This document shows positions 3,381-37,683 of a DNA stretch of 37,683 nucleotides, in pieces. Under the pieces are notes generated by a model. The model was not told the DNA's origin, did no database searches, and saw nothing but the letters and a program-made list of their open reading frames with translations. The DNA is from a virus. Position 1 is the first letter of the stretch, and each line of letters begins with the position of its first letter. The translations under genes were made by a program, and so were the position numbers. Location of the stretch: the IMG/VR virus record IMGVR_UViG_3300029717_000023, positions 1 through 37,683 of that record. One strand, given 5' to 3'.

Positions 3381-3693
3381 CTGGACAGAAGTAATAATCG
3401 GGATCTGCAGTATAGTAATCACGGGAATAATGATCCCGCTGATTAATGCGAAAAGGAAGGAAGTAAAAAACAGGCTGACAGACGACCAGCTCGAAGCAGT
3501 AGAATACTGGACAGAAGTCGGAGTGCGCTGGGCTAAGCAGTGGCTCTGGTCAGAATCAGGCCAGAAGAAGAAAGCCGAGGTTACAGACTTCCTCAATAAG
3601 AAGCTAGCAGAGCTGAACCTCAATATGACAGCAGAGGACATAGACAAAATAATAGAAGCTATATATGAGAGAGTGAAAGCAGAGAGTGAATAA
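3373..3693 (+). CDS. Holin, LL-H-family-like
   Basis: ATG after SD GGAGGA. N-terminal TM segment (VIIGICSIVITGIMIPLI) followed by a helical soluble tail, as in LL-H holins. Confidence 0.55.
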   Translation: MIDWTEVIIGICSIVITGIMIPLINAKRKEVKNRLTDDQLEAVEYWTEVGVRWAKQWLWSESGQKKKAEVTDFLNKKLAELNLNMTAEDIDKIIEAIYERVKAESE

Positions 3694-3995
3694 TGGAAAC
3701 AGTAAGCACAATATTAAGCTTCATCGTTCTTCTGGGAGCTGCAGCGGCGGTAATCTTCAAGCTGATTAAGCCAACAGTGGACATCAGAAAAATGGTGAAA
3801 GACCACGATGACAGATTGAAACGGATTGAGCGCCACGAAAAGAATGACCTGCAGGCGCTGGACCACATACAGTACCTGCAGAAAAAGCAGATGCAGATGA
3901 TGGTTGCGCTGCTCAATCATTCAATCGACGGAAACGGAATCGCCCAGATGAAAGCAACAAGAGATGAGATAATAGATCTCATAGCAGAAGAATAG
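3693..3995 (+). CDS. Membrane-anchored coiled-coil protein, lysis-associated by position
   Basis: N-terminal TM segment (ILSFIVLLGAAAAVIF) plus a helical region. Start overlaps the upstream stop (TAATG). Confidence 0.4.
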   Translation: METVSTILSFIVLLGAAAAVIFKLIKPTVDIRKMVKDHDDRLKRIERHEKNDLQALDHIQYLQKKQMQMMVALLNHSIDGNGIAQMKATRDEIIDLIAEE

Positions 3996-4021
3996 AATAA
4001 CAAGATATATATTGACACATA

Positions 4022-4057
4022 GCCCTCTGATTGCGATGCATGACGAGGGCCTTTTTT
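4022..4057 (+). terminator. Rho-independent terminator closing the lysis operon
   Basis: gccctc (4022-4027) pairs with gagggc (4045-4050), followed by cTTTTTT. Confidence 0.6.
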
Positions 4058-4118
4058 AATATTATGCGATAAACACATAATATTGAGATGTGATATAGAA
4101 ATATACTAGATATAGTTG

Positions 4119-4147
4119 TTGACATGTATGATAAAATATAAATAAAA
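4119..4147 (+). promoter_or_regulatory. Candidate promoter of the AT-rich island
   Basis: TTGACA at 4119-4124 with A/T-rich -10-like hexamers about 16-18 nt downstream. The exact -10 is ambiguous. Confidence 0.3.
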
Positions 4148-4174
4148 TAGTTATTTAAATGAATGAGGTATATT

Positions 4175-4594
4175 ATGGCAAAAATTAAAAACTTTATATA
4201 TTGCTTGAATGCAACTTCGGACGATAAAATAGCCAATGCAATGGGTATTCTCTTAACAATTAACCCCGATTATATGCCGGGAAATTTTTCGTTTAGTATA
4301 TTTTTCACAATCGTTGACATTAAAGAAGACTTGCATAATCTTAAGATTGAATTTTTAGACCCAGATGGAGAAGAAGTAATTCCTGCGTTAAAGGGAGAGA
4401 TTCCATATAAGAAGAAAGAAGAAGATAATGAGCTCGATAGCGATTATTCAGGAGTGAATATATCTGCTAATCTGCAAAACGTGAATTTAAAGAAAAACGG
4501 AAAGTATAAAACCGTAATCACATTTGATGGAGCGAAACTAAATGAGTACGAAATACTTGTAAAAGGGAAGAAAATTTTGAAAGAAGATGAATAA
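4175..4594 (+). CDS. Hypothetical protein A of the accessory island (139 aa, probably all-beta)
   Basis: ATG 6 nt after GAGG. AT-rich codon usage. No TM segment and no motif I recognise. Confidence 0.6.
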   Translation: MAKIKNFIYCLNATSDDKIANAMGILLTINPDYMPGNFSFSIFFTIVDIKEDLHNLKIEFLDPDGEEVIPALKGEIPYKKKEEDNELDSDYSGVNISANLQNVNLKKNGKYKTVITFDGAKLNEYEILVKGKKILKEDE

Positions 4595-4596
4595 AT

Positions 4597-5166
4597 ATGA
4601 ATAAACAATTATGCATACATAGAAGTCCTCATATGAATTTTTCTTACGACTTATCTAAGTCTGTTGACAATCCTAGCACTAATGTAAATAAAATTAATTA
4701 TGGAAATGGAATAAATAGCGCAATGCCTAAATATAATAATTATAGCATAGGTAAAAATGATATGTTTGTTAGGTGGCGTTATGATGAATCAAAAGGAGTT
4801 AGCTGCATGGAGATGAATGCTAGGAGCAGCAATTTAAAAAAACTCTTTGAGATAAGCAAATTAGAAGAAGACTGGAATGGTTATAGTGCAAAGAAAATTT
4901 CTAATAGGATTATAGAACTTGCGAAGAGCATACTAGATATAGTTGAGCAACAACCAGAGATTTACCCGACAGGAAGAGGCACTATTAATATGCAGTATGA
5001 GTTGAAAGATAAAAGCTATCTTGAGTTTGAGCTTTTTGATAATAGGATTGAATGCTTAAAAGTGCCCAAAAGAGAGTATTCAAAAGCTGTTACAGAGTCT
5101 ATAAATGAAGAAAATATTGTTCGTGTGAGTAAAATTTTAAAGGAATTTTGTGCTAATAATGATTGA
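4597..5166 (+). CDS. Hypothetical protein B of the accessory island (189 aa, or 119 aa from ATG 4807)
   Basis: ORF starts 2 nt after the stop of A. The N-terminal 70 aa are N-rich and low-complexity. In-frame ATG 4807 has a strong SD AAAGGAG (4792-4798). The C-terminal half contains LEEDWNGYSAKKI.... Confidence 0.55.
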   Translation: MNKQLCIHRSPHMNFSYDLSKSVDNPSTNVNKINYGNGINSAMPKYNNYSIGKNDMFVRWRYDESKGVSCMEMNARSSNLKKLFEISKLEEDWNGYSAKKISNRIIELAKSILDIVEQQPEIYPTGRGTINMQYELKDKSYLEFELFDNRIECLKVPKREYSKAVTESINEENIVRVSKILKEFCANND

Positions 5167-5551
5167 GATAAAAGAAAAATTATACAGAGCGGTGAAAAGG
5201 TCTAAGCCTGATACTCTTAACGATAAAAATAAAGCCACGTCGGCGCTATTTAAAGGCGAAAAAGGAATTTCAGTTGATAGAGATATGGGCAGAGCAGAAA
5301 CGGAAGTGTTAGATGCACTAAAAAAACATTTTAAAGAAAGATGTAAGGCAATAGTGACTTTTCCTGCGCGTGAGTGTAAAGAGAATGGCATACTTATTGT
5401 ACCGACGCCTTCTCAAGGGAATGTATTTCACGCAGAATTGTATGATGGAGAAGAACGCAACGAACTGACAAGTGTACAGTGTTTGATTTTAGCAGACATA
5501 AGTACAACCGTTTACTATAACAATGAAATTCAGTGGACTAATGCTAGTTAG
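5150..5551 (+). CDS. Hypothetical protein C of the accessory island (133 aa)
   Basis: GTG start 5 nt after AGGA (5141-5144), or ATG 5159. Overlaps the 3' end of B by 17 nt, which suggests translational coupling. No recognised motif. Confidence 0.55.
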   Translation: MLIMIEIKEKLYRAVKRSKPDTLNDKNKATSALFKGEKGISVDRDMGRAETEVLDALKKHFKERCKAIVTFPARECKENGILIVPTPSQGNVFHAELYDGEERNELTSVQCLILADISTTVYYNNEIQWTNAS

Positions 5552-5571
5552 TACAGAGTAGAAATTGAAAT

Positions 5572-5606
5572 CCTACACATATATGTCATATGTGTAGGGC
5601 TTTTTT
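5572..5606 (+). terminator. Rho-independent terminator closing the accessory island
   Basis: 11-bp stem: cctacacatat (5572-5582) pairs with atatgtgtagg (5588-5598). Loop atgtc, then gcTTTTTTaTTT. Confidence 0.7.
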
Positions 5607-5622
5607 ATTTGCACTAATCGTC

Positions 5623-5650
5623 AAAGGCTACAAGATGAGAGCCTTTTATT
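5623..5650 (+). terminator. Second weaker hairpin/terminator
   Basis: aaaggct (5623-5629) pairs with agccttt (5640-5646), followed by tattta. Confidence 0.35.
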
Positions 5651-5674
5651 TATAAAATGAAGAAAAACGAAGAA

Positions 5675-5696
5675 TGTTGCACCACCTGTTGTACCT
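5675..5696 (+). repeat. Two copies of TGTTG(C/T)ACC, candidate integrase arm-type sites (left arm)
   Basis: tgttgcacc at 5675-5683 and tgttgtacc at 5687-5695. Same orientation as three copies at 5899-5928. Confidence 0.4.
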
Positions 5697-5730
5697 ATTG
5701 CTGTAGCCCTTGAAAAATAGCGGTTTGCAG

Positions 5731-5780
5731 TTGGTTTCCTAAACCGTGCGTCGGAGGTTCGAATCCTCTCGGGAGTGCCA
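5731..5780 (+). other. attP core: 3' portion of a tRNA-Arg(CCU)-like gene (anticodon arm to CCA)
   Basis: Anticodon stem ttggt/accgt with loop ttCCTaa; variable gcgtc; T arm ggagg-ttcgaat-cctct; acceptor 3' strand cgggagt; discriminator g; CCA. No matching 5' acceptor strand or D arm upstream, so this is a fragment. Flanked by the inverted repeat agcggtttg (5719-5727) / caaaccgct (5785-5793). Confidence 0.55.
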
Positions 5781-5862
5781 ATCTCAAACCGCTTGAAAAC
5801 ATTGATATTTCAGTGCTTTCGGCGGTTTTTATTTTGGTTTCAATTTGCCGTTTTTTGTAAAA

Positions 5863-6960
5863 TCATATGACTGAAAGGTCGTTTGAGGTCGTTTGAGGTG
5901 TTGTACCTAGTGTTGTACCTGTTGTACCGTTTATTAGTTTTGCCGCCTCTAAAATCGTAGAATTATCTGCGTGAGTGTAAATATTTGCGGTCAAAGATAT
6001 ATCGCTGTGCCCCATCAGGTATTGCGCTGTTCTGATGTCGATTCCCTTCTTCTGCAGGTCAGTGCAATAAGTATGCCGCAGGTCATACGGCACAAAATCT
6101 TCCGCCAGGGGGAATGGAGGTATAAGCTTGTTCCTATAAACTCTACAACCCATAGAAATATTCATTTCTCTGTACAGGCTTTTCGTTATTCTCCTGTATG
6201 AAGAGGCATCGTGCTTTTTACCGACATTGTTCGGAGAGATGTAATCAAATTTAGGCGTGTTTTTAATCCTTTGGCACAATATATCGGGGATTGGTACAAA
6301 ACGGTTTGCGTTGTCCGTTTTAGTTCCTCTGATATGCAACACAGGCTGACCTTCAAGCATCTTTACATCCATACCTTTGGCCTCTCTTGCCTCAGACGGT
6401 CTGCAACCACAGTACAGCATCAGAAGAAATAGCACAAATCTGTCGTCATTCTCACATACTTTAAGCAGATGATATCTCTCGCTGTCTGTGATTGATCTTC
6501 GGCAGATCTTAGTTCCGGCTGGCTTGGTTATTTTTTCGGCAGGATTTTTCAAGATCAACTCATTGCTAACAGCTGTCCTAAATATGAAATTGAGCGTTTG
6601 ATGAACTTCGTTAATCTGTCTTTTAGAATTACCTGCCTGCAGATTGAGCACATTCTGGCAGTGAAGAGGCTTCACCTGCTTAAGTTGCATATCTCCGATG
6701 TGCTCCAGTATGCAATGCTTCATACGCTGCACATACTTCTTCTGCGTTTCGTCTGTCTGGTTTGTCTTGTATACCTCTACAGCTCTAAGTGCCCAGTCTT
6801 TGACGAGCATAGTGTTGGCAATCGTAACTTTTCCTTCTTCGAGATCGCGAAGCTTGTTCGCGATTTTTCTTTCAACCAATTTTTCGTTTTCTGCGGTTAC
6901 ATAGTATCTCTTACCGTCAAAAGTAAAAGACCTTGTGATAGAACCTTTTTTTCTTGCCAT
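5863..6960 (-). CDS. int: Tyrosine recombinase / phage integrase
   Basis: C-terminal catalytic signature: RPSEA..., YDLRHTYCTDL, GHSDISLTANIYTH (R..H-x-x-R..Y). ATG 6960 lies 7 nt after AGGAGG; the track ORF runs upstream to 7029. Confidence 0.9.
   Translation of the reverse strand: MARKKGSITRSFTFDGKRYYVTAENEKLVERKIANKLRDLEEGKVTIANTMLVKDWALRAVEVYKTNQTDETQKKYVQRMKHCILEHIGDMQLKQVKPLHCQNVLNLQAGNSKRQINEVHQTLNFIFRTAVSNELILKNPAEKITKPAGTKICRRSITDSERYHLLKVCENDDRFVLFLLMLYCGCRPSEAREAKGMDVKMLEGQPVLHIRGTKTDNANRFVPIPDILCQRIKNTPKFDYISPNNVGKKHDASSYRRITKSLYREMNISMGCRVYRNKLIPPFPLAEDFVPYDLRHTYCTDLQKKGIDIRTAQYLMGHSDISLTANIYTHADNSTILEAAKLINGTTGTTLGTTPQTTSNDLSVI
5899..5928 (+). repeat. Three copies of TGTTGTACC, candidate integrase arm-type sites (right arm)
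   Basis: Copies at 5899-5907, 5911-5919 and 5920-5928. A tandem ggtcgtttga x2 lies at 5877-5896. They overlap the 3' end of the integrase ORF and encode its low-complexity GTTGTTLGTT tail. Confidence 0.4.
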
Positions 6961-7114
6961 TGTATCGCCTCCTATAAATCCGGGCATAAAAATGCCTATG
7001 ATTGACAATAGGGCTACAGCATGATACAATCTAACTGTGTTCGAGTGTTAGAGCCTATCGGCTGTAACCCGTCAGACGTTTCTGCGCCAACAGGAGCGTC
7101 TGTTTTTTATTTAA

Positions 7115-7669
7115 TTATAAGTTCAATAACTCTTTTTTCTTGGCATCAAACTCTTCTTGGGTCAAGATTCCCATATCAAGAAGTTCTTTGAATTCTTTTA
7201 ACTGCTCTGCAGCAGATTTATTGTCTGAAGATACTTGTGGAGCATCCACTTTGGATTTTTGTTCATGTAGTATATTATGAAGTTTAGGACCGATTACTTG
7301 AACCTGAAGACCGGGTAGACCAATTCTGATAATCTCATTTTTTGTGCTGATTGTAACAGTACCGAACATTACCTTGTTCTCAGTAGTTATATCATTAAGG
7401 TTGTCATACAGCAATGTGCTTACAGTTCTGCCTACCAGGTTTCTACGGCCGTAGATAATACGTTTGTTCGTAAAGGCGTAAGCGTAATAACCTTCGCTCT
7501 TCGTTAGCGAAGAAGCATTATGCATTCCGATAAAACAGAACAAAACATCTTCATTAGCCTCAAGAGCTTCTTCGACCAATTCGAAGTGAGCAAGCGTCAT
7601 CTTCTTAGTTTCGGCGATCAGGTATTTGTTCTCTTGGACAAAATCCATCATTTCTTTTGCAGTTCTCAT
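7115..7669 (-). CDS. Bacterial PH (YokE-like) domain protein with a C-terminal SHOCT domain
   Basis: FAFTNKRIIYG-type bPH pattern. C-terminus LKEFKELLDMGILTQEEFDAKKKELL matches the SHOCT consensus. SD GGAGGA 7 nt upstream. Confidence 0.55.
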   Translation of the reverse strand: MRTAKEMMDFVQENKYLIAETKKMTLAHFELVEEALEANEDVLFCFIGMHNASSLTKSEGYYAYAFTNKRIIYGRRNLVGRTVSTLLYDNLNDITTENKVMFGTVTISTKNEIIRIGLPGLQVQVIGPKLHNILHEQKSKVDAPQVSSDNKSAAEQLKEFKELLDMGILTQEEFDAKKKELLNL

Positions 7670-7822
7670 ATCATGTTCCTCCTAAATATAAATATATAAA
7701 AAAGTATATAATATAAACATATTAACAGATGTCGAAACCTGTCGAACTTCCACTATTTACTTGTATATTTATCGCCTGAAGAGGAGTATCCTATATTCAA
7801 GGCACCCAGCGGAAAGGGTGTA

Positions 7823-8005
7823 ATGAACGAAATAATAATCCTACAACAGAATAATAAAAGGTATCTATTCGAAATAACTGGTAAAGTGTATAAGCATTTC
7901 GGCGTAGATAATATCTATGCCGTAGCCGTATATTATACCGGTCACATCATATACAATCTTGACTTCGATGTAAAATACGAAGAAAAAATCATACTAACCA
8001 AATAG
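7823..8005 (+). CDS. Hypothetical small protein (60 aa)
   Basis: ORF only. AT-rich, no clear SD. Confidence 0.2.
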   Translation: MNEIIILQQNNKRYLFEITGKVYKHFGVDNIYAVAVYYTGHIIYNLDFDVKYEEKIILTK

Positions 8006-8029
8006 ACTATATAGCTGGGTGCTTATTCA

Positions 8030-8203
8030 TTAAGCCCCTTTTGTTTTACTGGCCAATTCTCTCGCCGTTCTCAATAGTGATTCCCGCTGCCCATCTGCGA
8101 GCAACCGGTAATAAGAAATCAATTCTTCATAGTAGAGGAAAATATCCTCATTCTTAAATTGTATTGTTAAGCTCTCAAAATCCGCCTTACTATCATTTAT
8201 CAT
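8030..8203 (-). CDS. HTH-less paralogue of the repressor's central domain (57 aa)
   Basis: Not in the track (<60 aa). Its ATG overlaps the repressor stop (TAATG). TIQFKNEDIFLYYEELISYYRLLADGQRESLLRTAREL aligns to repressor KIEFNNKDDFLYYNELFSYCKTLSAASRGKVVERARVL. Confidence 0.45.
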   Translation of the reverse strand: MINDSKADFESLTIQFKNEDIFLYYEELISYYRLLADGQRESLLRTARELASKTKGA

Positions 8204-8757
8204 TATTCAGCCTTATCCTTTACATCCAGAGCATCACGCTTAAGCAGCTCCGCATTACCCTTATTAATTAAATCATTAACTGTGGACTCAACATCATCGT
8301 CGCGTATTTTTTTAACAAGTTCCGCATCAGGACCGGAGTATTCTTCCGGAACCTCAACATCTATATCTTCTTCGTTCTCAAATTCACATAAGACACGAGC
8401 CCTTTCTACGACTTTTCCCCTTGATGCTGCCGACAATGTTTTACAGTAAGAAAACAGTTCGTTATAGTAAAGGAAATCATCTTTATTATTGAATTCAATT
8501 TTCCAAACTCCGTCTGTAGCACGAACGTTGGTCAGGCCGACCAGGTAATCTAAGTCGACATTAAAAAAGTCGGCAATGTTTTTAGCGTATTCTAAATAAG
8601 GATCACTTTTATCGTTCTCCCATTTAGAAATCATTGATTTGTTTATGCTCAAATCAAATTTTATGTTGAGCTGCTCTGCAAGTTCCTCCTGCGTTAGCCC
8701 TTGCTCTTTTCTCAAAAGTTTAATCCGCCCCCCTATTATAGTAGCCAATTTGTTCAT
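8203..8757 (-). CDS. CI-like repressor, XRE-family HTH
   Basis: GGRIKLLRKEQGLTQEELAEQLN...ISKWENDKSDP is a classic HTH_3 pattern. ATG 8757 follows SD GAGAGGA; the track ORF extends to 8826. Confidence 0.85.
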   Translation of the reverse strand: MNKLATIIGGRIKLLRKEQGLTQEELAEQLNIKFDLSINKSMISKWENDKSDPYLEYAKNIADFFNVDLDYLVGLTNVRATDGVWKIEFNNKDDFLYYNELFSYCKTLSAASRGKVVERARVLCEFENEEDIDVEVPEEYSGPDAELVKKIRDDDVESTVNDLINKGNAELLKRDALDVKDKAE

Positions 8758-8792
8758 TCCTCTCTTTTTTTTAGTATGACTAAAATATAACA

Positions 8793-8806
8793 CGAAAGTT
8801 TCGATA
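8793..8806. promoter_or_regulatory. Operator-like site 1 (cgAAAGTTTCGAta)
   Basis: Shares the AAAGTTTCGA core with sites at 8875-8888 and 9131-9144. Lies in the divergent CI/Cro intergenic region. Confidence 0.4.
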
Positions 8807-8841
8807 ATGCAATAAAATTTTAGCAAAAATTAAAAAAATTA

Positions 8842-8870
8842 TTGACAATGAAACAAATGAGGTGTACGAT
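8842..8870 (+). promoter_or_regulatory. Candidate rightward early promoter
   Basis: TTGACA at 8842-8847, 17-nt spacer, TACGAT at 8865-8870. Confidence 0.4.
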
Positions 8871-8874
8871 AAAT

Positions 8875-8888
8875 AAAAAGTTTCGAAA
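8875..8888. promoter_or_regulatory. Operator-like site 2 (AAAAAGTTTCGAAA)
   Basis: Contains the perfect palindrome tttcgaaa. Lies just downstream of the candidate -10. Confidence 0.4.
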
Positions 8889-8907
8889 ACAACAACAAAG
8901 GAGGGAT

Positions 8908-9132
8908 ATGATGCTTAGAAACGAAACGAAGCGGAAAAGAACACCATATACAAAGTTCTCGTTATTTCTCAGGGAACATAATATACCGCAGTCCGAGATA
9001 GCGGAACTTCTGAACAAAGGCGTTGCAGCTGTAAATCAGAACATCAATGGGACGGGTGGGGACTTCACTGTCAGCGAAGTAGTGAAGATCTGCAACAAAT
9101 ATGAGATATCCACAGAGATTTTTTTTAACTAA
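8908..9132 (+). CDS. Cro-like small DNA-binding protein
   Basis: ATG after SD AAGGAGGG. Divergent from the repressor. FSLFLREHNIPQSEIAELLNKGVAAVNQ is HTH-like. Confidence 0.55.
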   Translation: MMLRNETKRKRTPYTKFSLFLREHNIPQSEIAELLNKGVAAVNQNINGTGGDFTVSEVVKICNKYEISTEIFFN

Positions 9133-16973: not shown

Positions 16974-17147
16974 ATGAAGATGAACAAGAAAGAAGCAATG
17001 GACAAGCTGTACGAGCATAAAAATATGCTTACGTATCAGCAGTACAGGACATTCAGAGGTCAGATATGCTCAGGAGATATAGTAGGATTTCACAAGGGTT
17101 TAGATAGGATATTGAAAAGAAAAGGAGAAGTAAAATGTCAGAGATAA
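16974..17147 (+). CDS. Small hypothetical protein (57 aa)
   Basis: ATG 7 nt after AGGAGA. Overlaps the DGR target 2 start by 13 nt. Below the track cut-off. Confidence 0.3.
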   Translation: MKMNKKEAMDKLYEHKNMLTYQQYRTFRGQICSGDIVGFHKGLDRILKRKGEVKCQR

Positions 17148-17962
17148 AGATAGGAACAATCAATATTATTTTTAACGGCAATATGAATAGCGCGCAGGAA
17201 ATGATACCGGCAGCGGAGCGTTGTGAGAACAGCCCAGCTAAAGCGCCGGTGAAAATTGTAACATGGGCAGACGGAACAGACGAAGAAATAGTTGCAATGG
17301 TTAAGGCAGCAGACAAGGGACTGATCGATTTGAAAGATTACTGGAATATTGGAGATGCAAGAAAGGTTATGCTGTCTGAGACAGAAGGCTGCGAATGGTA
17401 TACGTCCCACAGCAGACAGGAGACTGAATTCGTATTGATGAACGCTGGCGGGAAGATGTTGCTAACACCTACCGAGTCAGGCAGGACAACCTGTAGCTTT
17501 GTGGTTGGGTTGAAAGATTGTCTCAAAGAAGAGGACAAAATCAACAGAGAAGATACAAATGAAGGCGGCTGGGAAAGTTCAGATATAAGGGAATGGTGCA
17601 ATGACTGGTTTGCACAGTCAATTCCCCAGACCCTGCAGCCGATATTCAAAAACTTTGTAAACAGTACATATGCAGACGGGAAGATTGTTGAAACGACAGA
17701 CCTGTTTGCGCTTCCGGCAGAGGTTGAGGTGTACGGAAGCACCAAATACTCTGCACAGGGAGAAGGCACACAATTTGAGCTTTATAAAAATCCGCTTAAC
17801 AGAATTAAGTGTATAGGCTCCGGAGGATATCAGGCCCACTGGTGGGAGCGTTCTCCTTGTTCGAGCAGTTCGGCTGGTTTCTGCATAGTCGACTCGGACG
17901 GCGACGCCGACGTCAGCAGCGCGTCGGTCACTTTTGGACTGGCCCCTTTCGGCTGTATCTAA
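17135..17962 (+). CDS. DGR target protein 2 (C-type-lectin-like variable domain only, 275 aa)
   Basis: Paralogous to residues ~185-421 of target 1 (KIVTWA.GTD.EI..MV.AADKGLI.L.DYW..GD...). C-terminus carries VR2 (HWWERSP...GLAPFGCI*). SD AAGGAG. Confidence 0.85.
   Translation: MSEIKIGTINIIFNGNMNSAQEMIPAAERCENSPAKAPVKIVTWADGTDEEIVAMVKAADKGLIDLKDYWNIGDARKVMLSETEGCEWYTSHSRQETEFVLMNAGGKMLLTPTESGRTTCSFVVGLKDCLKEEDKINREDTNEGGWESSDIREWCNDWFAQSIPQTLQPIFKNFVNSTYADGKIVETTDLFALPAEVEVYGSTKYSAQGEGTQFELYKNPLNRIKCIGSGGYQAHWWERSPCSSSSAGFCIVDSDGDADVSSASVTFGLAPFGCI
17833..17960 (+). repeat. DGR variable repeat 2 (VR2)
   Basis: 128 nt align gap-free to TR 548-675. All 22 mismatches are at TR adenines. Confidence 0.95.
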
Positions 17963-17973
17963 TATCAATTAAT

Positions 17974-17991
17974 CAGCAGCGAATGCTGCAG
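17974..17991 (+). promoter_or_regulatory. VR2-proximal hairpin (GAAT loop), DGR target-recognition element candidate
   Basis: gcagc-gaat-gctgc core, plus an outer c-g pair across an a/a mismatch. Begins 13 nt after VR2, the same offset as at VR1. Confidence 0.6.
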
Positions 17992-18005
17992 GAAGGAATT
18001 AAGAA

Positions 18006-36350: not shown

Positions 36351-37616
36351 ATGTGGGGACAAATAAAAAAGAGAAGCGGCGGCATCAAGTCAATTCCAAC
36401 AGGTATCTATGTCGCCACAGCACCGAACAAGACATCATATAAGGCAGGGGAGACGCTTGCAATAGCTGGAATGGTGGTTAAAGTCAAGTTCTCAGATAAC
36501 ACTGAAAAAGACATAACATCTGAGTGTACGCTTTCACCTGCCGCAGGAACAGTCATATATGAGAATACAACCAAAATAGATATAAGCTGGGAGTGGAATG
36601 AGCTGGGAGCTGCAATTGCATATTCAGCTGAACAGCCTGTAACAGTTCAGAGAGTGTTAAGCTCAATCGCCGTTACAACGCAACCAACCAAAACTACATA
36701 TTATAAAAATGAAACTCTTAACCTTGCCGGAATGGTGGTTAAGGGAACGTTTAATTCGGGGACGACTGCAGTTGTTACAGGCTGGACAACCAGTCCTGCA
36801 AACGGAGTAGCGCTGTCTATACTCGGCACTCAAACAGTGACAGTATCATACACCGAGAATGGAGTGACAAAGACAGCGACATTCACAGTACAGGTAAATG
36901 TGAAGATTGTAACCTGGGCTGCCGGCACGGATGCAGAGATCGCCTCAATGGTAGAGGCTGCGGACAAAGGATTGATTACCCTGTCAGACTATTGGACAGT
37001 GGGAGATGAACGGTCTGTGAGCCTGTCTGCTATGGCAGCCACAGGAGTAGGCGAAAGCCACGCGGCACAGACCGCGAAGTTCGTGCTAATGAACGCCGGC
37101 GGAAAGGACCTCGTGACAGCGACTGAGTCAGGCAGAACAATCTGCAGCTTCGTGGTGGGATTGAAAGACTGCCTGAATGAAGCGGGATACATGAATTCGT
37201 CAAATACCAACGCAAATGGTTGGGACGGCTGCGCAAGAAGAACGTGGTGTAACGGCATTTTCAGAAACGCCATTCCGTCAGCGCTGAGAGGAATATTCAA
37301 GCAGCATAAGAATAAGGCTTCTGCAGGAAGCGGTAGCTCAGCAATAAATACATCTAACGACTATTTCGCACTGCCGGCAGAAATTGAAGTGTTTGGAACC
37401 AGGAGTTACTCAGCCTCGGGCGAAGGTTCGCAGTTCAAATACTATGAGACAGCATCGAACAGAATTAAGAATGTTAATGGTAGCGCGGCCAACTGGTGGG
37501 AGCGTTCTCCTTATTCGAGCAGTTCGACTAATTTCTGCGGAGTCTTCTCGAACGGCTTCGCCGACCTCTACTCCGCGTCGCACGCTTATGGACTGGCCCC
37601 TTTCGGCTGTATCTAA
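36351..37616 (+). CDS. DGR target protein 1: two Ig-like repeats plus a C-type-lectin-like variable domain
   Basis: Two ~90-aa repeats (..T.Y..GETL..AGMVVK..F.....) at about 36390-36900. Then a domain paralogous to target 2, ending in VR1 (NWWERSP...GLAPFGCI*). Last gene of the fibre module. Confidence 0.9.
   Translation: MWGQIKKRSGGIKSIPTGIYVATAPNKTSYKAGETLAIAGMVVKVKFSDNTEKDITSECTLSPAAGTVIYENTTKIDISWEWNELGAAIAYSAEQPVTVQRVLSSIAVTTQPTKTTYYKNETLNLAGMVVKGTFNSGTTAVVTGWTTSPANGVALSILGTQTVTVSYTENGVTKTATFTVQVNVKIVTWAAGTDAEIASMVEAADKGLITLSDYWTVGDERSVSLSAMAATGVGESHAAQTAKFVLMNAGGKDLVTATESGRTICSFVVGLKDCLNEAGYMNSSNTNANGWDGCARRTWCNGIFRNAIPSALRGIFKQHKNKASAGSGSSAINTSNDYFALPAEIEVFGTRSYSASGEGSQFKYYETASNRIKNVNGSAANWWERSPYSSSSTNFCGVFSNGFADLYSASHAYGLAPFGCI
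37482..37614 (+). repeat. DGR variable repeat 1 (VR1)
   Basis: 133 nt align gap-free to TR 543-675. All 19 mismatches are at TR adenines. Confidence 0.95.
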
Positions 37617-37627
37617 TATCGCATAAT

Positions 37628-37645
37628 CGGCAGCGAATGCTGCCG
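37628..37645 (+). promoter_or_regulatory. VR1-proximal hairpin (GAAT loop), DGR target-recognition element candidate
   Basis: cggcagc-gaat-gctgccg: perfect 7-bp stem. Begins 13 nt after VR1. Absent downstream of TR. Confidence 0.65.
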
Positions 37646-37683
37646 GAAAGGAGAACAGCTTGAGCGTACCAACGTGGAAGAGG

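Follow-up and report, generated by a model that had tools for sequence, protein, structure and literature searches.

The window analysed here, a 37,683-nucleotide stretch of viral DNA (IMG/VR record IMGVR_UViG_3300029717_000023, positions 1 to 37,683), carries between its lysis genes and a candidate phage attachment site (attP) an AT-rich island that encodes three tightly packed genes on the plus strand, hereafter A, B, and C. Gene A (4175..4594), preceded by a GAGG motif 6 nt upstream of its start, encodes an acidic protein of 139 aa (pI 4.9) that Pfam and phrog profiles assign to DUF6941, and that we propose to be an accessory component. The product of gene B (4597..5166), 189 aa in length, is proposed from its structure model, its profile, and a match to the PADLOC model PDC-M32A to be a neutraliser or adaptor of C. 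Gene C (5159..5551) encodes a 130-aa protein (133 aa from a GTG at 5150) whose model and conservation suggest an enzymatic effector or toxin; it overlaps B by 8 nt when started at the ATG at 5159 and by 17 nt when started at the GTG. The original prediction, made from the sequence without database searches, had described the same three closely packed open reading frames and had proposed a toxin-antitoxin or defence system. The arrangement stands, with C starting at either codon. The whole cassette, comprising terminator, promoter, A-B-C, and terminator, spans positions 4008..5634 of the plus strand, as delimited by homology to a related prophage locus, L001, and includes the genome-wide GC minimum.

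At 0.32, the GC content of positions 4060-5610 contrasts with that of the rest of the window (0.44) and is the lowest among 723 same-sized sliding windows, some 3.6 sd below their mean (0.433, sd 0.031), so that the compositional anomaly first noted by eye survives a sliding-window check. GC content at third codon positions is 0.27-0.31 for A, B, and C, versus 0.45-0.53 for the reverse transcriptase, endolysin, and integrase genes. As had been anticipated, the island is bounded by terminators on both sides. Upstream, an intrinsic terminator-like hairpin on the plus strand (4022..4057; GCCCTC...GAGGGC followed by T6), kept in L001, is missed by the terminator scan because its loop is long, but folds as RNA at -14 kcal/mol (z -3.0; none of 200 shuffles equally stable); it would insulate the cassette from late and lysis transcription. 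Downstream, a both-strand scan detected a bidirectional intrinsic terminator (5571..5606; 5571-5599 plus T-run in the scan) with a 12-bp stem, which is kept in L001 except for a 7-nt loop deletion. Two promoters had also been put forward. The first, a sigma-70-type candidate on the plus strand (TTGACA-18-TAAAAT, 4119..4148), matches the consensus at 11 of 12 positions and is the top-scoring candidate within 3600-6200, and the surrounding region (4100-4200) is 97% identical to L001, exceeding the conservation of the coding sequences. The second, at 4664, is unsupported: its -10 hexamer has no final T, and the scan therefore does not list it. In the interval from the upstream terminator to the -35 box, there is a perfect inverted repeat of 9 nt (4058-4084; AATATTATG N9 CATAATATT), and a 33-nt imperfect direct repeat (4099-4166) runs across the promoter; both may serve as operators, in an AT-rich region that makes chance matches likely. 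Rfam family and tRNA searches returned nothing inside the island.

The same three genes are present in a related integrated prophage (loci L001-L004). Homology between the window and L001, with 81-97% nucleotide identity, starts at ~4008, just before the upstream terminator, and stops at ~5634, ~35 nt past the downstream one; in the integrated L001, it ends ~80 nt beyond the stop codon of C, at the prophage/host junction. The flanks differ. In the window, the cassette sits downstream of endolysin/holin genes, namely an ELLD/PG_binding_1 endolysin and three small membrane proteins, and upstream of the tRNA-like attP and a tyrosine integrase. In L001, an SPP1-type holin and an Amidase_2 endolysin lie upstream, and host genes directly downstream. 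These sharp homology edges and unrelated flanks indicate that the promoter-genes-terminator unit has moved between phages, as morons do. Prophage morons are autonomous promoter-gene-terminator units that lie by lysis genes or att sites and are expressed in the lysogen. The cassette shares with them its own promoter, terminators on both sides, deviant GC content, a lysis/attP location, and differing flanking modules, although the term covers packaging and not the function of the cargo. We conclude that the island is a discrete, self-contained, horizontally mobile, moron-like cassette, as its position between the lysis genes and attP had led the original prediction to propose. Comparison with L001 gave ratios of nonsynonymous to synonymous substitution rates (dN/dS) of 0.16 for A, 0.05 for the B domain, and 0.10 for C, indicating real genes under purifying selection, and of 0.42 for the N-terminal extension of B. 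In the same comparison, dS climbs along the cassette (A 0.24, B domain 0.43, C 0.71), which suggests recombination within the module.

We then fetched 129 related loci and scanned them with hidden Markov models built from alignments of A, the B domain, and C. Gene B was found directly upstream of C, on the same strand, in 79 of the 82 C-seeded loci, the other three being at contig edges; C without B was not encountered among these 82 loci. After dereplication, 71 distinct B-C pairs remained. B and C overlap at 61 of 67 dereplicated junctions, with gaps of at most 10 nt at the others, and identities computed pairwise for the B domain correlate with those for C across the 71 pairs (r 0.82; none of 2000 Mantel permutations as high). 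By these sequence comparisons, B and C are an obligately linked, translationally coupled, co-evolving pair.

B, by contrast with C, can stand alone. It occurs without C in L025, beside a conjugation coupling protein, and in L044, beside a Fic gene and a PIN toxin-antitoxin pair. In a group of viral contigs of 73-145 kb (L029-L036), a B-only gene of 120 aa (~5983-6345 in each) lies behind thyX among early-type genes. A further B without C was found in a 484-kb uncultured phage (L047, 2956-3282), as an unannotated match; apart from it, the annotated phage and plasmid collections, searched at the DNA and the protein level, gave nothing useful. A profile search of genome contigs with a narrower B alignment returned 7 loci. 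The standalone B genes in lytic-type contigs (L029-L036, L047) encode 108-120 aa. An effector that is never alone and a partner that can be an orphan form the pattern classically seen in toxin-antidote pairs. By analogy, the phage orphan B genes are candidate antidote mimics for counter-defence, for which a phage-encoded mimic of DarG provides an orphan-antidote precedent (PMC11481870).

The predicted structure of B comprises two parts. Its N-terminal extension (4597-4806, plus strand) is predicted by AlphaFold to be disordered (residues 1-62; predicted local distance difference test score, pLDDT, <50), and is followed by a core α/β domain (4807..5166, plus strand, with a possible internal start) equal to the whole protein of two-gene modules. 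This domain (residues ~70-189; block-mean pLDDT 85-98) is modelled as two helices, a five-stranded sheet, and a C-terminal helix, with the invariant residues grouped in WNGYGA, P-x-I-x-PTGR, and YLEFE motifs, and its profile retrieved 777 relatives (clusters at 90% identity). B proteins as short as 115-121 aa are encoded in L005, L008, and L025, of which L005 and L008 are two-gene versions. The long form starting at 4597 is supported by the abutment of A's stop codon to B's start in all 17 dereplicated trios, and the extension, albeit divergent, is recognisably homologous across the family (NCVRLSND...VVMFIYNSRSG). The alternative that the first 70 codons are an untranslated leader was therefore discarded on the basis of this abutment in every trio and of the family-wide homologous extension. 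An internal AAAGGAG-8-ATG element (4791-4809, with the ATG at 4807) stands just ahead of the conserved domain. An in-frame Met lies 5-8 residues before the domain in nearly all of 18 trios, and is preceded by a Shine-Dalgarno-like motif in about 8 of them (including L001, L020, L037, L041, L052, L059, L063, and L065), suggesting from sequence that a short, tail-less B isoform may be made beside the full-length protein. Fold searches of B against the PDB gave no significant match, the best being the KhtT N-domain (E 0.08, 67 columns), with CdiI and SycT lower.

Gene A was originally thought to be independent of the other two. The loci tell otherwise: a DUF6941 gene is found in 19 of the 71 dereplicated B-C modules and always abuts B, with A's stop codon -1 to +3 nt from B's start (17 of 17 dereplicated trios). 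This recurrence with B-C across unrelated contexts, together with the stop/start abutment, argues against independence. The window's A matches PF22091 (DUF6941) at E 2e-16 (60.9 bits against a gathering cut-off of 27; profile positions 3-124 of 125) and phrog_5881, and all 13 A homologues adjoining B that were compared match DUF6941. In every A-linked B protein (17/17, dereplicated), the N-terminal extension measures 64-92 aa. Most A proteins of these trios are 40-47% identical to that of the window, and 28% in the divergent viral locus L037. The settings of DUF6941-B-C range from chromosomal polysaccharide and housekeeping loci to an integrative and conjugative element (ICE), a viral contig, and Lachnospiraceae/Clostridiales metagenome-assembled genomes. 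A pattern search for DUF6941 in viral contigs found none, and comparisons of A with small heat-shock proteins and immunoglobulin V domains were not significant (E 0.2-0.8). A match of DUF6941 to the receptor-binding domain of sarbecovirus spike (E 4e-6) was repeatable, over a 46-residue motif (N-x-LPD...G-x-V-A-x-N-x-x-N-x-D-x-K-x-x-G-x-Y); we judged it to be due to chance, since it is local and inflated by a tandem construct and hundreds of near-identical entries.

Other genes abut B in the inspected loci that have a long extension and no DUF6941. L038 (5052-5714) and L118 (3697-4368) carry at this place members of a ~220-aa family that are clearly homologous to each other, L011 (3076-5446) a 549-aa AAA ATPase and a 210-aa protein, and L027 (5552-5803), after a holin and an endolysin, an 83-aa protein; none of these upstream genes received a family assignment. 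Because varied genes abut a long-tailed B, the slot upstream of B reads as an exchangeable accessory position, and the disordered tail as a putative docking site. The closest functional analogy for A and the tail is provided by toxin-antitoxin-chaperone (TAC) systems, in which the antitoxin carries a disordered extension to which a SecB-like chaperone binds. As in TAC, the putative antitoxin has a disordered extension that goes along with a third gene, and two-gene versions can drop both. The differences from TAC are that A belongs to DUF6941 only, with no likeness to SecB; that the extension lies at the N-terminus instead of the C-terminus; that the genes run in the order third gene-antitoxin-toxin; and that the slot upstream of B also holds unrelated proteins.

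The AlphaFold model of C (pLDDT 95; predicted template modelling score 0.89) shows a compact α/β protein with six strands and four helices. A single-sequence search gave 55 homologues, and an exhaustive profile search 691 cluster representatives at 50% identity, the best 150 of which are all standalone proteins of ~77-158 aa. Among 146 representatives, one per cluster at 50% identity, residues R10, A29, F31, G36, S38, V39, D40, R41, R45, H91, and L111 are near-invariant, and the conserved polar cluster R10/S38/D40/R41/R45/H91 is typical of an active site. Identification of C as a RES, DarT, ParT, HEPN, or RelE-type toxin found no support in Pfam, NCBIfam, or PADLOC, and was rejected.

The link to known defence candidates comes through PDC-M32. 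The sole library match of B is the PADLOC model PDC-M32A (PDLC04576; E 1.9e-6), covering profile positions 263-356 of 375 only, the first ~260 positions being unmatched in every B tested. PDC-M32B (PDLC04579) is matched by 25 of 54 C homologues (best 4.1e-9), and the distant pair in L011 matches both models, its C homologue covering positions 5-114 of 123. PDC entries are candidates without experimental test, nominated for their embedding in BREX, DISARM, or type I restriction-modification loci (10.1101/2024.01.29.577857); the sole paper that names PDC-M32 reports it in Sinorhizobium prophages (PMC12429752). The module resembles PDC-M32 in its two adjacent genes on the same strand, and C-family proteins align end to end with PDC-M32B. 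It differs in that PDC-M32A is a single protein of ~375 positions, of which only the last ~100 are found here, its N-terminal part being replaced by the short disordered tail, and in that a separate DUF6941 gene precedes B. Based on these profile matches, the module appears to be a split, Firmicutes-type distant relative of PDC-M32, itself an uncharacterised candidate.

The module also recalls better-known systems. With DarT-DarG, ParT-ParS, and RES-Xre, it shares small, overlapping, co-directional genes with the putative neutraliser upstream, an effector that is never alone, mobility, presence in defence islands, and possibly an ADP-ribosyltransferase/Tpt1-like fold. However, C is unrelated in sequence to DarT, ParT, RES, and Tpt1, the fold similarity is not significant, and B is neither a macrodomain nor a helix-turn-helix protein. 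With type II toxin-antitoxin pairs, it has in common small, adjacent, translationally coupled genes that are predicted to be co-transcribed, a putative toxin that is never alone, and orphan putative antitoxins, but the classical antitoxin has a DNA-binding domain, which B lacks.

Taken together, these data lead us to favour, with moderate confidence, the view that A-B-C is a three-part toxin-antitoxin-like defence or addiction moron related to PDC-M32. The cassette would be expressed in the lysogen from its own promoter, insulated by a terminator on both sides. C would arrest growth, possibly through an action on NAD+ or RNA; the domain of B would bind, sequester, and neutralise it; and A, bound to the disordered tail of B, would act either as a stabiliser or as a sensor of the trigger. 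When a phage infects the cell or the element is lost, the A-B association would be disturbed and C released, which would lead to abortive-infection-type protection of the lysogen, to prophage addiction, or to both. The proposal that B and C behave as a toxin-antitoxin or defence pair, made initially from their overlap, is now strengthened by the comparative record of linkage (79/82), overlap, orphan B, co-evolution, and PDC-M32 homology.

Several observations weigh against this interpretation. The literature holds no toxicity or phage-protection experiment for the family or for PDC-M32. Searches of the PADLOC models, suggested in the original prediction, gave the partial match of B described above, but the C of the window matches no model at E ≤ 0.1, PDC-M32B included; as its relatives do match, its homology to PDC-M32B is transitive. 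Library scans assigned B to no helix-turn-helix, ribbon-helix-helix, or AbrB family and revealed no recognisable DNA-binding domain, and conservation is higher in B than in C, an uncommon pattern for an antitoxin. With a median pI of 6.1, C is near-neutral, whereas many toxins are basic. Long B extensions without DUF6941 are present in 28 dereplicated loci, so the interaction between A and the tail is one that we infer. Finally, many modules lie between housekeeping genes (trmD, dapF, EF-Tu/EF-G, rml), and any enrichment of the module in defence islands is putative.

The chemistry of C raises the same caution. No Pfam family matched any of the 146 diverse C members, nor the 54 scanned, and neither an ADP-ribosyltransferase nor RES nor PTS_2-RNA was among the top-ranked weak Pfam matches listed for these two sets. 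Predicted-structure searches, suggested in the original prediction, started from confident models of C and of the B domain but yielded no significant PDB match for either. For C, the best was KptA (E 0.14, TM 0.44), and 9 of the top 50 PDB fold matches are Tpt1/KptA RNA 2'-phosphotransferases, of the ADP-ribosyltransferase-type fold. A viral-library fold search gave weak Tpt1 and ART-PolyVal matches and one unnamed protein at E 0.015, nothing interpretable. Comparison of the C profile with E. coli KptA by hhalign gave a probability of 0.3%, and searching the PDB sequences with profiles from the alignments of A, B, and C returned no credible matches. Catalysis in the Tpt1/ADP-ribosyltransferase superfamily is marked by R-H-R-R, H-Y-E, or R-S-E signatures, and the residues of C to be set against them are the conserved R10, S38, R41, R45, and H91. 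By every sequence test applied, C falls outside the Tpt1 and ADP-ribosyltransferase families; an NAD+- or RNA-directed activity, suggested by the model, is a lead and not a finding.

The homologue neighbourhoods, which might have pointed to defence islands or prophage ends, do so in part. Some modules adjoin McrBC, a DISARM-like helicase, DUF1848, SIR2, MADS, Lamassu LmuB, type I/IIG restriction-modification, or PIN toxin-antitoxin pairs, and those in prophages lie after the lysis genes (the window, L001, L027) or before the terminase (L034). Others are found at the housekeeping loci mentioned above or on ICEs, and most full modules recovered belong to bacterial chromosomes and ICEs unrelated to phages. 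These prophage, ICE, and housekeeping sites are occupied as selfish cassettes do.

A more specific version of the proposal, which we advance tentatively and hold to be unlikely, is a tripartite conditional toxin in which the β-rich DUF6941 protein grips the tail of B and controls the release of C, the upstream slot being an exchangeable sensor and lytic phages having captured the bare B. As part of the same conjecture, and covered by the same reservation, C would found an enzyme family distantly shaped like NAD+-dependent RNA 2'-phosphotransferases/ADP-ribosyltransferases.

Among the rivals, an addiction or stabilisation toxin-antitoxin system that merely retains the prophage, ICE, or chromosomal islet, with no anti-phage role, would account equally for the linkage, the overlap, and the orphan B signatures, and would suit the many copies that are flanked by housekeeping genes or carried by ICEs and are not placed in defence islands. 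We nevertheless regard it as unlikely: the module is homologous to a candidate nominated for its embedding among defence systems, and a standalone B in lytic-type phages is hard to explain unless C-type effectors threaten phages. To the same degree improbable, B-C might form a non-toxic two-subunit enzyme or regulatory complex, for instance one whose RNA- or NAD-linked modification or repair activity would benefit the phage or the host, A being a third subunit. Such a complex would be in keeping with the high conservation of B, its invariant polar residues, and its dN/dS of 0.05, below that of C, and also with the weak resemblance of C, which is not basic, to RNA 2'-phosphotransferases, which are repair enzymes. 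But an obligate heteromer would not be expected to show B without C and never C without B, and the patchy, cassette-like distribution, the anomalous GC content, and the absence of an operonic tie to any pathway also speak against it.

We consider very improbable that the genes serve phage counter-defence or superinfection control, with C disarming a host defence or a component of an incoming phage under the regulation of B. The lysis/attP site is a hotspot for accessory genes and B-domain genes do occur in lytic-type phages, yet these phages carry B only, without C, and the prevalence of full modules in non-phage chromosomes and ICEs is at odds with such a role. For each of these three alternatives, the C/B asymmetry or the distribution is a poorer fit than for the toxin-antitoxin-like defence or addiction moron. 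That A, B, and C are chance reading frames in AT-rich filler, an idea with nothing in its favour beyond low GC, can practically be dismissed, being refuted by the homologues, the Pfam family of A, the structure models, and the purifying selection.

Further features were noted elsewhere in the window. Its first and last 99 nt are identical (1-99 and 37585-37683), indicating that the window is a circularly closed phage genome assembly of ~37.58 kb. It contains a complete diversity-generating retroelement, with an Avd-like open reading frame (76-516), a template repeat (548-709), a reverse transcriptase gene (531-1925), and two variable repeats, one (37487-37648) at the 3' end of the frame 36351-37616, whose L001 equivalent has Big_3 and DUF6273 domains, and the other (17833-17994) at the 3' end of the frame 17135-17962; differences between template and variable repeats coincide with template adenines. 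The interval that separates the cassette from the integrase gene (5863-7029, minus strand) contains a tRNA-like element (5706-5777) with a perfect T-arm, GGTTCGAATCC, which scores 19.8 bits with the Rfam tRNA model against a threshold of 29 and is not called as a tRNA by ARAGORN; this element is the probable core of attP, originating from the 3' end of a tRNA. The L001 prophage integrates at a different site. In the lysogeny region, a protein with bPH_3 and SHOCT domains (7115-7669, minus strand) adjoins the integrase, and positions 7500-9000 form the second low-GC stretch of the genome (0.35-0.38); this region may hold another accessory or exclusion gene.

If the proposed defence or addiction function is correct, PDC-M32 would pass from a database name to a defined module, with a core made of the ~115-aa B domain and the ~130-aa C protein. 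The family is large (691 clusters of C at 50% identity; 777 clusters of the B domain at 90%), and its candidate catalytic residues, as well as its natural two-gene and three-gene variants, are available for testing. It is common in human-gut Lachnospiraceae/Clostridiales and their prophages, a setting with few characterised defence systems. With its exchangeable upstream partner and the orphan phage B, it would offer a ready system for studying infection sensing and phage escape, and C may represent a new effector chemistry.

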